This document shows, piece after piece, positions 284 through 7,486 of a DNA stretch of 8,688 bases. This stretch comes from Escherichia coli. Its GTDB lineage: Bacteria; Pseudomonadota; Gammaproteobacteria; Enterobacterales; Enterobacteriaceae. The stretch lies in the NCBI RefSeq assembly GCF_003334335.1, contig NZ_QOWQ01000068.1; one strand, 5' to 3'. The translations under genes and the position numbers were made by a program. The notes under the pieces are model-generated. The model made no database searches and was not told the origin of the DNA. It saw only the letters and a program-made list of their open reading frames with translations. Numbering within the stretch: position 1 is the first letter of the stretch; each line of letters opens with the position of its first letter.

Positions 284-320
284 ACTATGTACATAAAAAT
301 ATCATTTTTTTAATACATGT

Positions 321-512
321 CTAATTATTGGACGAAATTGGTTTTTGCTTTGGTTTAGTTAGCCTAGCAATCAAGCCAGAGGCAATAATGATGATCCAAG
401 CAATTTGATGCAATGCTACTCCAATATAAGAACCTTTATAGATAATAAAGGCATAGATCGCTAGAAACGAAATAAATATCCATAACGAAAGTTGATAAAT
501 TTTGGCGCGCAT
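321..512 (-). CDS. Small hairpin (2-TM) membrane protein, 63 aa, unknown function
   Basis: The ATG at 512 (MRAKIYQ..) is preferred over the TTG at 527. There are two about 20-residue hydrophobic helices separated by KGSY, and a basic C-tail (RLTKPKQKP). There is a weak GGA upstream. No family recognised; the resemblance to YiaA/YiaB two-helix proteins is only faint. Confidence 0.5.
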   Translation of the reverse strand: MRAKIYQLSLWIFISFLAIYAFIIYKGSYIGVALHQIAWIIIIASGLIARLTKPKQKPISSNN

Positions 513-768
513 ATTTAATCCAATCAATCAGAAAGACGAGTAATCATAGAGGTACTATCACCCGGGTAACTATTGCTATTATGAACGGATAGGATAGAGG
601 CTTCAATAACATATGCATCAAGTATGATGGAATATGTAGGTGAAAATGACTTGTGTCAAATTTGTGGAAATGAGTACCATGTTTCTCTGAAATTGATGTC
701 GTTAATGGCTAGTGATAGTGAACTTTTTTACTTTATAATTCCTTTGGTTATAACAATAAGGTAAATTT

Positions 769-1329
769 ATGAAGAAGATAATATTATTAGCCATGATTAT
801 TGGTTCTTTAACAGGTTGCGCTAGTGTGCCACCATTGAATTTTTCAACACCTAACGTGGGAGTTAGCCAGAAAAAAATAGATGCTGAAATTAAGTCATTA
901 ACGGTATCACTTGCTCGTCCAGATGAGCAGAAAGGGGATATCACTGCTGGTATGGAGGCTATAACTCCAATTTGGCGTGAATCTTTGCAGGAAGCACTCG
1001 ACCGAATGACTATTTTTCGTGATAGTTCACCAAATACGGTTAGCTTAAATGTTAAAGTGTTGGCTCTTGACGTTCCTGCTTTTGGTGTTTCAATGACAAC
1101 TAAAGCAATTGCAAGGTATGAAATAATCAACCGTGCGAATGGTGATATTATATATACGCAGGATATTGAGTCTACCGGTACTGTTCCAGCCAGTTACGCA
1201 TTCTACGGTATTGTTCGAGCACGCGAATCTGTTAATCGCGCGGTGCAAAACAACATAACGCAGTTCTTGCAAGCATTAGAAAGTGTTGATCTTTCTCGTC
1301 CAATGTTTCCTGTTAGGGTAGCTAAATGA
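769..1329 (+). CDS. Orphan outer-membrane lipoprotein, 186 aa
   Basis: The signal peptide carries the lipobox LTG|C17, with Ala at +2. An AAGG lies 8 nt upstream of the ATG. The stop overlaps the next start (ATGA). The mature part looks like a mixed alpha/beta domain. Its architecture loosely recalls YajG-type lipoproteins (tentative, from memory). Confidence 0.8.
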   Translation: MKKIILLAMIIGSLTGCASVPPLNFSTPNVGVSQKKIDAEIKSLTVSLARPDEQKGDITAGMEAITPIWRESLQEALDRMTIFRDSSPNTVSLNVKVLALDVPAFGVSMTTKAIARYEIINRANGDIIYTQDIESTGTVPASYAFYGIVRARESVNRAVQNNITQFLQALESVDLSRPMFPVRVAK

Positions 1330-1778
1330 AGCGATTATTCGTAATTGCTCCACTCTTAGTGTTGGTTGGATGCGCACAAAATATATCGCCAAATAGTTAT
1401 TCTGTTGGCTCTGTGGGCATGGTTAATCGAACTATCGCTGGTACAGTTATTAGTGCTAGGGGGGTTGATATCAGTGGGACTTCCGCGTTAGGCGGGACTG
1501 CTGGGGCTGCCGTGGGGGCAACCGCTGGTTCTGCGCTTGGTGGGGGAGTTCGTTCTAATATCGTTGGTGCCGTTGGTGGTGCAGTCATTGGTGGTATTGC
1601 CGGGGCAGCAATCGAATCTTCAGCAACAAAACAAACAGGCATGGAATATGTTGTCGAAACTGAGAATGGGAATTTAATGACCATTGTTCAAGGCAAAGAT
1701 CCGTTATTTACTCAAGGAAGTAAGGTCCTTGTTTTATACGGAAACCCTTCTCGCATAATAACAGACCCGCGTCACTAA
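1326..1778 (+). CDS. SlyB/Pcp-family glycine-zipper outer-membrane lipoprotein (17-kDa-antigen type), 150 aa
   Basis: Lipobox LVG|C16. A Gly/Ala zipper spans residues about 51-96 (GTSALGGTAGAAVGATAGSALGGG..GAVGGAVIGGIAGAAI). The C-terminal beta segment GMEYVVETENGNLMTIVQGK..KVLVLYGNPSRIITDPR is collinear with E. coli SlyB (..GVELEIRKDDGNTIMVVQKQ..RVVLASNGSQVTVSPR). An AGGG lies 7 nt before the ATG. Confidence 0.85.
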   Translation: MKRLFVIAPLLVLVGCAQNISPNSYSVGSVGMVNRTIAGTVISARGVDISGTSALGGTAGAAVGATAGSALGGGVRSNIVGAVGGAVIGGIAGAAIESSATKQTGMEYVVETENGNLMTIVQGKDPLFTQGSKVLVLYGNPSRIITDPRH

Positions 1779-1818
1779 CATACCTTTTGATTTTGTAAAA
1801 TCAATTCGTAATAATAAA

Positions 1819-4030: not shown

Positions 4031-5113
4031 TTAGAACTGGTAAACCATACCTACAGCAACGATATCATCGGTAGCAACGCCAGATGCTTTCGTGAAATCG
4101 CTCTTATCAATCAGGTTGATTTTGTAATCAACAAAAGTGGACATATTTTTGTTGAAGTAATAGGTTGCACCTACATCAATATATTCAACCAGGTCCTGAT
4201 CACCCCACGCACCCAAGTCTTTTCCTTTAGATTGCAGGTAAGCAACGGACGGACGCAGACCGAAGTCGAACTGATATTGTGCAACTACTTCGAAGTTTTG
4301 TGCTTTGTTGGCAATATGGTTATTACCAAAAACAGTCATGTTCTGGGTTTCAGAATAGGTGGTAGCCAGATAGATGTTGTTCGCATCATATTTCAGACCA
4401 GCTGCCCATACTTCAGCATTTTGACCAGATGCATTCAGGCTGTTGTTACCGTAGATAACCTGATTATTAGTGCGGTCAGATTTAGCATAGGTTGCACCTA
4501 CACCGAATCCTTCATACTCATAAGTAGTGGAGAAACCGAAACCATCACCATTAGCTTCAGTTACGTCAGTGCGGTCATTTTTACCCTGATACTGAGCAGC
4601 AAAGTTCAGACCATCAACCAGACCAAAGAAGTCATTGTTACGATAAGTTGCAACACCTGTGGTGCGACCAGTCATGAATACATCTGTTTGGGTCCAGGTA
4701 TCGCCACCGAATTCTGGCAGAACGTCGGTCCATGCACCAATATCGTATGCTACACCGTAGTTACGGCCATAATCGATGGAGCCGTAGTCACCGAATTTCA
4801 GGCCAGCGAAGGCAAGACGGGTTTTATCTTTGGAGGAACCTTGAGATTCAGCGCGGTTGCCTTTGAATTCATATTCCCACTGACCGAAACCAGTCAGTTG
4901 ATCGTTGATTTGGGTTTCACCTTTGAAGCCAAGACGGGCATAAGTAGTATCACCATCATCTGCATCATTAGAGGAGAAGTAGTGCTTAGCATTAACTTTC
5001 CCGTACAGATCCAGCTTGTTACTGTCTTTATTATAAATTTCAGCTGCCTGAGCAGACATCGCCATCAGTACTGATGCAGCTACAGCAGAAATTGCCACTG
5101 TTAATTTTTTCAT
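4031..5113 (-). CDS. nmpC: OmpC/PhoE-family general porin NmpC (Lc-type), intact, 360 aa precursor
   Basis: The start at 5113 ([23 protein letters not shown]|AEIYNK..) has a signal peptide and an AAGGG SD. The sequence has porin hallmarks (..LDLYGKV.., ..GFGQWEYEF.., C-terminal ..VGMVYQF). The 20 extra N-terminal residues in the track ORF lack a signal-peptide context. Confidence 0.95.
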
Positions 5114-5540
5114 CGTGAGCCCTTTTTTTGAACTATTATTAAAAAATGATGTCACTGCGCGATAAATATTCATCTAATCAATGTGATTATTTCAAGATGT
5201 AAGTTTTGGTTTCTCATTTGATTTGTGAAGTAGATCTCTATTTTTATCTGAACTTTTTCTATCGAATCCTATTCATGGCTCTTGGCTGAATAAAAATAAA
5301 TCTATTAGCCAATTTATATTAATGGCTGTTATTTATAAGTGCTCTATAATTTGAAGATTCAATTTAAACCAGCTAAAAATAACGCTGGAAATTATTTGTT
5401 GGTTATTTGTTGAGATTTGCTTATGTATTTGTAGTGGTGTTTTCAATACTCGGTAGCATTCTCGCAAATATCATTTAGTGGTTTACGTACGTAAAAAATT
5501 GGTTATGCTGTTAAGAGTGGTTACTTCGTCACACAGCTTA

Positions 5541-5916: not shown

Positions 5917-6413
5917 TGCCTCCATCATTACGAAAAGCCGTTGCTGCTGCTATTGGTGGCGGAGCAATTGCTATAGCATCAGTGTTAATTACTGGCCCAA
6001 GTGGTAACGATGGTCTGGAAGGTGTCAGCTACGTACCATACAAAGATATCGTTGGCGTATGGACTGTATGTCACGGACACACCGGAAAAGACATCATGCT
6101 CGGTAAAACGTATACCAAAGCAGAATGCAAAGCACTCTTGAATAAAGACCTTGCCACTGTCGCCAGACAAATTAACCCGTACATCAAAGTCGATATACCG
6201 GAAACAACGCGCGGCGCTCTTTACTCATTCGTTTACAACGTGGGTGCTGGCAATTTCAGAACATCGACGCTTCTTCGCAAAATAAACCAGGGCGATATCA
6301 AAGGCGCATGTGATCAGCTACGTCGCTGGACATATGCTGGCGGTAAGCAATGGAAAGGTCTCATGACTCGTCGTGAGATTGAGCGTGAAATCTGTTTGTG
6401 GGGTCAGCAATGA
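5916..6413 (+). CDS. rrrD: SAR (signal-anchor-release) endolysin, T4-lysozyme/R21 family, 165 aa
   Basis: TAATG overlap with the holin. The N-terminal Gly/Ala-rich weakly hydrophobic segment ([18 protein letters not shown]) is a SAR domain. E35, D44 and T50 sit at the R21 catalytic-triad positions. Confidence 0.95.
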
Positions 6414-6871
6414 ACAGAGTAACCGCGATTATCTCCGCTCTGGTTATCTGCATCATCGTCTACCTGTCATGGGCTGTTAATCATTACCGTGATAACGCCA
6501 TTACCTACAAAGCCCAGCGCGACAAAAATGCCAGAGAACTGAAGCTGGCGAACGCGGCAATTACTGACATGCAGATGCGTCAGCGTGATGTTGCTGCGCT
6601 CGATGCAAAATACACGAAGGAGTTAGCTGATGCGAAAGCTGAAAATGATGCTCTGCGTGATGATGTTGCCGCTGGTCGTCGTCGGTTGCACATCAAAGCA
6701 GTCTGTCAGTCAGTGCGTGAAGCCACCACCGCCTCCGGCGTGGATAATGCAGCCTCCCCCCGACTGGCAGACACCGCTGAACGGGATTATTTCACCCTCA
6801 GAGAGAGGCTGATCACTATGCAAAAACAACTGGAAGGAACCCAGAAGTATATTAATGAGCAGTGCAGATAG
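6410..6871 (+). CDS. rzpD: i-spanin Rz, 153 aa
   Basis: The ATG at 6410 overlaps the endolysin stop (ATGA). There is an N-terminal TM helix, then a coiled-coil-like charged region. The sequence matches remembered RzpD. Confidence 0.9.
6630..6812 (+). CDS. rzoD: o-spanin Rz1 lipoprotein, 60 aa, embedded in the +1 frame of Rz
   Basis: Lipobox VVG|C20 and a proline-rich mature part ([16 protein letters not shown]). The gene is wholly nested inside Rz, as in lambda and phage 21. Confidence 0.85.
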
Positions 6872-6902: not shown

Positions 6903-7196
6903 TTATTGTGAGCAATACACACGCGCTTCCAGCGGAGTATAAATGCCTAAAGTAATAAAACCGAGCAATCCATTTACGAATGTTTGCTGGGTTTCTGTTT
7001 TAACAACATTTTCTGCGCCGCCACAAATTTTGGCTGCATCGACAGTTTTCTTCTGCCCAATTCCAGAAACGAAGAAATGATGGGTGATGGTTTCCTTTGG
7101 TGCTACTGCTGCCGGTTTGTTTTGAACAGTAAACGTCTGTTGAGCACATCCTGTAATAAGCAGGGCCAGCGCAGTAGCGAGTAGCATTTTTTTCAT
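6903..7196 (-). CDS. borD: Bor serum-resistance outer-membrane lipoprotein, 97 aa
   Basis: MKKMLLATALALLITG|CAQQTFTVQNK.. has a lipobox and matches remembered lambda Bor/BorD. It sits immediately after Rz on the opposite strand. Confidence 0.95.
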   Translation of the reverse strand: MKKMLLATALALLITGCAQQTFTVQNKPAAVAPKETITHHFFVSGIGQKKTVDAAKICGGAENVVKTETQQTFVNGLLGFITLGIYTPLEARVYCSQ

Positions 7197-7486
7197 GGTG
7201 TTATTCCCGATGCTTTTTGAAGTTCGCAGAATCGTATGTGTAGAAAATTAAACAAACCCTAAACAATGAGTTGAAATTTCATATTGTTAATATTTATTAA
7301 TGTATGTCAGGTGCGATGAATCGTCATTGTATTCCCGGATTAACTATGTCCACAGCCCTGACGGGGAACTTCTCTGCGGGAGTGTCCGGGAATAATTAAA
7401 AACGATGCACACAGGGTTTAGCGCGTACACGTATTGCATTATGCCAACGCCCCGGTGCTGACACGGAAGAAACCGGACGTTATGAT

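Follow-up and report, generated by a model that had tools for sequence, protein, structure and literature searches.

A SlyB-type lipoprotein and a partner of predicted LptE-type fold: a mobile two-gene cassette carried by a DLP12-like prophage of Escherichia coli

Glycine-zipper lipoproteins of the SlyB type, recently described as stabilisers of the outer membrane under stress, have been treated as stand-alone proteins. The slyB gene of Escherichia coli itself presumably stands alone. SlyB and YfgH are described as assembling into rings or discs around lipid and outer-membrane proteins (OMPs), by which they stabilise the membrane and protect the cell under stress by ethylenediaminetetraacetate (EDTA), detergent and the like (10.64898/2025.12.22.696046), and PDB entry 7ojf is, by its title, a SlyB13-BamA complex. 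TraT of the F plasmid (9fs5/9e2v) joins an LptE-like core and a two-helix outer-membrane hairpin in one chain and assembles into a ring, a decamer; the LptE-type fold is also found in binders of anionic oligosaccharides (PMC12658005). Here we describe two adjacent genes, A and B, on an 8,688-nucleotide (nt) stretch of E. coli DNA (assembly GCF_003334335.1, contig NZ_QOWQ01000068.1), which we call the window and always mean at its full length. B encodes a SlyB paralogue that is found nearly always with a dedicated partner, the product of A, which has a predicted LptE-type fold. B alone is of a known type; what is new is the near-obligate pairing with an LptE-fold partner, together with the mobility of the pair. 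No account of the A-B pair was found in the literature searched.

The first-pass annotation of the window, which was made from the DNA letters, had described A and B as coupled genes for two lipoproteins bound for the outer membrane. On reading the sequence again we confirmed the coordinates (Table 1), the lipoboxes LTG-C17 and LVG-C16, the alanine at position +2 in both proteins, and an ATGA overlap in which the TGA stop codon of A (1327-1329) runs into the ATG of B (1326-1328). The lipoprotein signal of A reads MKKIILLAMIIGSLTG followed directly by C17-A18, and that of B reads MKRLFVIAPLLVLVG followed directly by C16-A17. A Shine-Dalgarno-like stretch containing GGG lies inside A, 8-11 nt upstream of the start of B. 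The lipobox cysteine was invariant in 44 homologues of A and in 34 homologues of B, and more than 500 homologues were found for each protein (E ≤ 1e-3). Because of this invariance and these homologues, we take A and B to be real genes and not chance open reading frames (ORFs). B has no aspartate at +2 (A17), as expected for sorting to the outer membrane. The description of the pair as co-transcribed genes for outer-membrane-type lipoproteins is supported at the level of sequence, and both products are probably lipidated and located in the outer membrane. The ATGA overlap was limited to the copies in E. coli and Klebsiella; at other A-B loci the genes are separated by a short spacer of ~0-60 nt, as estimated from tblastn alignment ends.

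When all PDB sequences were searched with phmmer, B matched SlyB in 7ojf/7ojg (E = 1.3e-14), with residues 2-149 of B aligned to residues 3-155 of 7ojf. A profile of 34 B homologues aligned end to end with SlyB in hhalign (98.8% probability, 149 columns) and over part of its length with YfgH (96.4% probability, 110 columns). In the AlphaFold2 (AF2) model of B, a strand and two long helices (residues 55-71 and 75-101) precede a beta domain at the C terminus. In a Foldseek search of the PDB with this model, 7ojf_A was the sole match at E ≤ 0.001 (E = 3.2e-8; template modelling (TM) scores 0.57/0.61). PF13488 matches are precomputed for many close homologues of B. The phmmer, hhalign and Foldseek results confirm the earlier identification of the downstream protein as a SlyB relative, and by these measures B is a full-length SlyB paralogue.

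One B homologue departs from this layout. At locus L062 (8554-8883), in a metagenome-assembled genome (MAG) of candidatus Porisulfidus, a 109-residue homologue directly after A has wholly lost the glycine-zipper hairpin, while its lipobox, its N-terminal segment and the beta domain at its C terminus are all retained. It is a possible natural test of what the hairpin contributes.

The first-pass annotation had proposed a fixed partnership of the two lipoproteins and had asked for a survey of their co-occurrence. Scanning one genome per species with A as the seed gave 76 loci, which spanned gamma-, beta- and alphaproteobacteria, Chthoniobacteraceae and one Desulfobulbaceae MAG. A B homologue lay immediately downstream of A, on the same strand, at 70 of the 76. 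A metagenome scan seeded with B gave 80 loci, 78 of them with enough upstream sequence to be evaluated, and A was found upstream of B in 77 of these 78. The proposed partnership is borne out by both scans. The idea that the pair is a new arrangement belonging to a prophage was not: the cassette is conserved, and most of its copies lie in accessory DNA other than that of phages, in alpha-, beta- and gammaproteobacteria and in Chthoniobacteraceae. The one in the E. coli prophage is just a further copy of this widespread two-gene unit.

The pairwise distance matrices of A and B were correlated (r = 0.72 over 142 distinct pairs; 0/500 Mantel permutations above 0.14), and mean divergence was alike in the two proteins (0.39 for A and 0.40 for B). 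This correlated and equal divergence shows that A and B are passed on, and transferred, as a unit. A proteins that have a B partner share a conserved C terminus, ...VD..(K/R)P-M-F-P, and the PMFP tail occupies residues 178-181 of A. For 138 distinct A proteins the sequence downstream could be evaluated: 128/128 with B had a P[MLIVF]FP tail, compared to 0/10 without B (P = 2e-15, Fisher test; the samples are not independent and represent ~7 separate losses). Decayed remnants of the tail were seen at loci L061 (PMPP) and L046 (LMPF). The more distant members of the A superfamily mostly had no tail, and four of them, on short contigs, had no B-like neighbour. The correlation between tail and B points to a physical partnership of the two proteins, and the simplest reading of the tail is that it is a B-binding element. 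Overall, the A-B partnership is well supported by the comparative data.

It could instead be that A and B are independent, with incidental co-transcription and no physical or functional interaction. That no natural fusion proteins were found fits such independence. It is countered by the reciprocal adjacency of 92-99%, which has been kept across several bacterial groups despite repeated horizontal transfer, by the matched and correlated divergence, and by the perfect association of tail and partner. We consider independence very improbable.

A separate observation was made at two Photorhabdus loci that have A only (L046 and L049). There, the DNA at ~1.0-2.0 kb downstream of A translates as VHCRTGSLE repeated at regular intervals, and resembles an array of clustered regularly interspaced short palindromic repeats (CRISPR) read as an ORF.

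The predicted model of A was confident (predicted local distance difference test (pLDDT) 86; predicted TM score 0.80). It has a fold of the LptE/PqiC/PelC type, in which two helices pack on an antiparallel beta sheet, here within a lipoprotein; identity to LptE-fold proteins was just 6-13%. An exhaustive profile search gathered a family of 971 clusters (E ≤ 1e-3), mostly lipoproteins. The window copy of A had no match in Pfam or NCBIfam, a profile search against PDB sequences gave no match for A, and a search of viral folds in BFVD gave only weak, uninformative matches (CsgG-like and ERF/Rad52-like). The earlier remark that A fits no family is right for the curated libraries and wrong in making A an orphan: by the profile search, A is a member of a large, unnamed lipoprotein family that has no Pfam model.

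Two names given to A in the databases are misleading. In NCBI, in UniRef and in the record of phage PhiR30_1, A is called a UDP-N-acetylglucosamine acyltransferase. We rejected an LpxA-like identity on three grounds: the family scans, which covered 117 members (44 + 73), gave no Hexapep match, A has a lipoprotein signal peptide, and its predicted fold is alpha/beta. The acyltransferase name looks like a propagated misannotation. The newer name, assigned by the Prokaryotic Genome Annotation Pipeline (PGAP), is YajG family lipoprotein, and the first-pass annotation had likewise seen a loose YajG-like architecture. PF03923 matched 0/117 members, and NF008637, the NCBIfam model for YajG, reached only the signal-peptide region of A (E = 0.17). 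The hhalign probability between A and YajG, 75-88% with the signal peptides included, fell to 7.8% on the mature parts, the YajG profile being shallow since all homologues retrieved were >85% identical. The YajG-like architecture fails on the mature sequence, and the fold of A is of the broader LptE/PqiC/PelC type. YfgI, encoded next to yfgH in K-12, was also tried as an analogue of A and rejected (hhalign probability 1.3%).

The resemblance to LptE and PqiC raises a further explanation, in which A is an accessory that handles lipid or lipopolysaccharide (LPS) and B is a mere anchor or membrane site. Such a module would move or bind an anionic glycolipid and would form no protective nanodomains. 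Besides the low identity to LptE-fold proteins, we found no PF03886 (PqiC) match and a single weak PF04390 match (E = 0.018) among 73 members of the A family, and no MCE/Pqi, Lpt or other transporter genes nearby in any lineage. We regard this explanation as unlikely. The identification of A as PqiC itself (DUF330) was rejected, as there was no Pfam match and no conserved MCE/Pqi neighbour.

In both proteins the segment that follows the lipobox (PPLNFS.PNVG.S in A, NISP..YSVGSVG.VNR in B) is unusually conserved for a lipoprotein tether and was modelled without regular structure. These segments are consistent with a role in oligomer contacts.

Three distant proteins with an A domain, P0419 (644 residues), P0442 (539 residues) and P0470 (264 residues), have an ordinary signal peptide with no lipobox cysteine. 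In P0419 and P0442 the C terminus is extended by a long, charged stretch that resembles a coiled coil, and in P0419 and P0470 the A domain is still followed by a PMFQ or PMYQ motif.

No third gene is conserved with the pair. In 38 diverse loci, 148 neighbours fell into 114 Pfam families, none of which occurred in more than four loci. The commonest families were XRE-type helix-turn-helix, Peptidase_S24 and phage integrase, which gives the neighbourhoods a slight mobile-element flavour. The contexts vary: the pair lies among umuDC and stress genes in Klebsiella oxytoca and among toxin-antitoxin genes and remnants of transposases in Bordetella; in Luteimonas its surroundings are a variable region. 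The guanine-plus-cytosine (GC) content of the cassette was below that of its flanks in 42/66 loci (median difference −5 points, maximum −19) and was higher by at least 3 points in one locus. That it is usually below the flanks indicates that the cassette moves horizontally. Homologues of A were also found on ~19 IMG/VR contigs other than those of E. coli (44-73% identity). On this comparative evidence, A-B is a self-contained, horizontally mobile two-gene cassette that is sometimes captured by prophages.

In E. coli, we found the cassette in 280/5426 complete genomes. The copies are 99-100% identical, every one is chromosomal, and all 280 sit in the slot between ren and ybcN. In the DLP12 prophage of K-12 the same slot holds emrE-ylcJ-ybcK-ybcL-ybcM, and because its cargo differs there, the slot is a cargo hot spot. 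In the window, ren ends at ~283 and is followed by an AT-rich island with a GC content of 32-45%, compared to ~51% in the flanking phage genes (40% over 283-1950). The right edge of the island is sharp: homology to ~3800 other ybcN-bearing E. coli genomes restarts at 1782-1786, 4-8 nt past the stop codon of B. Like a moron, the cassette differs from its surroundings in composition, has sharp edges and occupies a slot whose content varies; its promoter is a consensus match only. The E. coli cassette is cargo of a DLP12-like lambdoid prophage slot.

Lipoprotein exclusion factors such as Cor and Llp are a known phage strategy. The pair could serve in superinfection exclusion or receptor masking, with A-B sequestering or occluding a porin, FhuA, BtuB or LPS, and with lysogens that resist phages or colicins. 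The place of the cassette in a prophage cargo slot, its divergent copies on ~19 other predicted viral contigs and the ability of SlyB rings to enclose OMPs (7ojf, SlyB13-BamA) fit this explanation. Most copies lie in non-phage chromosomal contexts, however, and identity across bacterial classes is ~60%, unlike that of receptor-specific exclusion proteins; this conservation favours a universal envelope target over a strain-specific receptor. Genes for porins or receptors did not accompany the pair, PADLOC gave no match, and the PHROG families concerned (12521 and 13877) are unlabelled for function. These data suggest that exclusion is a rather unlikely role. The more specific suggestion of the first-pass annotation, that the pair cages a receptor porin or the NmpC porin, found no comparative support, as the pair has no porin gene, or indeed any other gene, as a steady companion. 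We also rejected a role like that of spanins, since Rz/Rz1 are already present in the window (Table 1) and the pair is mostly non-phage.

We propose, with a probability of roughly 55%, that A and B form a hetero-oligomeric, SlyB-type assembly which stabilises the outer membrane and is carried by the prophage as envelope-hardening lysogenic-conversion cargo. B would be held by its lipid anchor, with the glycine-zipper hairpin inserted in the outer membrane and a small beta domain in the periplasm. By homology to SlyB, it would oligomerise laterally into rings or discs around lipid and OMPs. A would dock on B via its C-terminal PMFP tail, perhaps also via its N-terminal tether, and would cap, nucleate or specify the SlyB-like ring. 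The A-type fold recurs in lipoproteins that sit on the periplasmic side of the outer membrane, some of them ring-forming (PelC, CsgG, TraT), others plugging or binding a barrel (LptE) or capping trans-envelope structures (PqiC), and it recurs in proteins that bind anionic glycolipids. As prophage cargo with a candidate promoter of its own, the operon would provide lysogens with an extra outer-membrane stabilising module and make them more tolerant of stress that upsets LPS or lipid asymmetry. The physical binding of A to B, the formation of rings and the physiological role are what we infer from these comparisons; of superinfection exclusion, colicin tolerance and outer-membrane stabilisation, the last is the possible role best supported, given what is known of SlyB and YfgH.

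Several observations weigh against this proposal. The window copy of B scored below the Pfam gathering cut-offs (21.1 vs 24.2 for PF05433; 16.9 vs 25 for PF13488), and the confidence of its monomer model was only moderate (pLDDT 70). Only ~7 independent losses of B underlie the correlation between tail and partner, two of them at pseudogenised loci, and loss of the tail could reflect general decay after the loss of B and not the loss of a binding site. Natural A-B fusions were not found among the longer members of the A family, whose extensions bear no relation to B. Since slyB and yfgH are present in E. coli in any case, an extra benefit to the lysogen is a proposal. A search for a PhoP box (≤2 mismatches) gave no match in 528-768, between a small upstream ORF and the start of A. 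A promoter scan was without overall enrichment over shuffled sequences (6 sites vs 4.8 expected), the candidate upstream of A being a consensus match only.

An explanation related to this assembly is a split, TraT-like surface structure in which A supplies the LptE-like core and B the two-helix hairpin. A hollow, decamer-like ring of this kind would act as a physical barrier on or in the outer membrane, giving resistance to serum or complement or excluding conjugation or contact-dependent attack. The match of B to TraT was not significant (E = 0.08-0.2, TM 0.2-0.28), A resembled many other LptE-fold proteins more than TraT, and neither protein had sequence similarity to TraT. A split TraT is improbable on these grounds. 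A broader version of the stabilising assembly can be put forward as a tentative idea. Here the pair would build a hetero-oligomeric outer-membrane ring of a kind not described before, in which an LptE-fold lipoprotein caps or lines a palisade of SlyB-type helices. This two-chain counterpart of TraT, spread between bacterial classes on mobile DNA, would be a portable envelope shield against membrane-active stress, complement, or contact-dependent or phage attack.

The window comes from a DLP12-like lambdoid prophage, of which it covers the early-right region and the lysis genes. Its gene order is the 3' end of ren, the AT-rich island, ylcH/ybcN (ninB-like), ninE, ybcO, rusA, ylcG, quuD, a porin gene (minus strand), essD, rrrD, rzpD/rzoD, bor (minus strand) and ybcV. 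The annotation of phage PhiR30_1 shows a matching gene arrangement, the A-B pair included. The positions of the features discussed are given in Table 1.

Table 1. Positions of the A-B cassette and of other features in the 8,688-nt window.
Feature	Position	Strand	Remarks
AT-rich cargo island (moron)	284..1784		Between ren and ylcH/ybcN; boundaries from GC and homology
Small hydrophobic ORF	321..527	-	68 residues from TTG, probably two membrane helices; upstream of and divergent from A; shorter hypothetical coding sequence in PhiR30_1
Sigma-70-like promoter candidate	712..739	+	GTGATA-16 nt-TATAAT; 30 nt upstream of the ATG of A
Gene A	769..1329	+	186-residue predicted lipoprotein; lipobox LTG-C17, Ala at +2; LptE/PqiC/PelC-type alpha/beta fold (predicted), N-terminal tether, PMFP tail
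Gene B	1326..1778	+	150-residue SlyB-type glycine-zipper lipoprotein (predicted); lipobox LVG-C16, Ala at +2; predicted helical hairpin 55-101, C-terminal beta domain
Stem-loop	~1787-1804		7-bp stem, 3' of the B stop codon
Stem-loop	1818-1848		11-bp stem, 3' of the B stop codon; z = −3.2 vs shuffles
Prophage porin gene	4031-5173	-	380-residue ORF
Rz/Rz1	6398-6871, 6630-6812		
bor	6903-7196	-	
PhoP box	7249-7265	-	Direct repeat TGTTTAGGGTTTGTTTA; 53-69 nt upstream of the bor start codon

The promoter candidate upstream of A agrees with the sigma-70 consensus at 10/12 positions, and its -10 hexamer is perfect. Inspection by eye gave no convincing sigma-E promoter. The nearest PhoP-box-like matches lie at 307-357, beyond the small ORF, and at 794-810, inside A; since A is not preceded by a PhoP box, there is no indication of regulation like that of slyB. 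Of the two stem-loops downstream of B, the larger was rejected as a terminator of the cassette, as it has no U tract and lies in the backbone common to cassette-free prophages. Both stem-loops lie in this common backbone, and for that reason they may be tR-type signals that belong to the phage itself and precede ylcH/ybcN.

The small hydrophobic ORF was confined to the E. coli island copies and was absent at all other A-B loci. It had no PHROG or PADLOC match, and its belonging to the A-B module is doubtful.

The sole perfect PhoP box in the window lies upstream of bor. borD (vboR) is a reported member of the E. coli PhoP/Mg2+ stimulon, and the box is probably that known site. The PhoP signal in the window belongs to bor and not to the SlyB-like gene. 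The prophage porin gene is intact, and in the matching genome it is annotated as a 365-residue porin (~1.1 kb); its K-12 homologue, nmpC, is interrupted by IS5. It is a separate cargo gene, which showed no linkage to the lipoprotein pair in any other lineage.

If A and B co-assemble, the pair would add a new architecture to the very few alpha-helical assemblies of the outer membrane. If the proposed role is true, lysogenic conversion is a route by which modules that harden the envelope spread as cargo. With the cassette present in ~5% of complete E. coli genomes, a tractable test system is at hand. The analysis also corrects the two database names of A and defines a large lipoprotein family that had been without a Pfam model.

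Compared to the individual families, A is set apart on several counts. A and YajG are both lipoproteins of ~190 residues, and the order of secondary structure was compatible in the hhalign alignment; yajG of E. coli, however, adjoins ampG and not a glycine-zipper gene. A belongs to none of the Pfam families of the proteins that share its fold (LptE, PqiC (DUF330, 2iqi), PelC and CsgG), no associated barrel or transporter genes lie near it, and the tether and PMFP tail are peculiar to A.

Among known systems, B comes closest to SlyB and the glycine-zipper lipoprotein group of YfgH, OsmB and YiaD. It aligns with SlyB over the lipobox, the conserved N-terminal segment, the predicted glycine-zipper hairpin with its GGG-x-R turn, the C-terminal beta domain and the terminal P-R. 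It differs in that identity was only ~26-33% in alignments and in that the B homologues make up an orthologue group of their own that is tightly conserved. B follows gene A, whereas slyB in E. coli is, as we assume, a single gene; no PhoP-box match was found upstream of A; and B is horizontally mobile and not a core gene.

Together, A and B would offer both of the building blocks that TraT has, and, like TraT, they are found on a mobile element. The two elements lie on separate chains in A-B, and the structural matches are weak. With the lambdoid morons (bor, lom, and emrE/ybcL/ybcM of DLP12), the locus has in common an AT-rich island with sharp boundaries, a known slot, a candidate promoter of its own and products that are predicted envelope proteins. 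It differs from these morons in carrying a unit of two genes that is also in wide circulation beyond phages.

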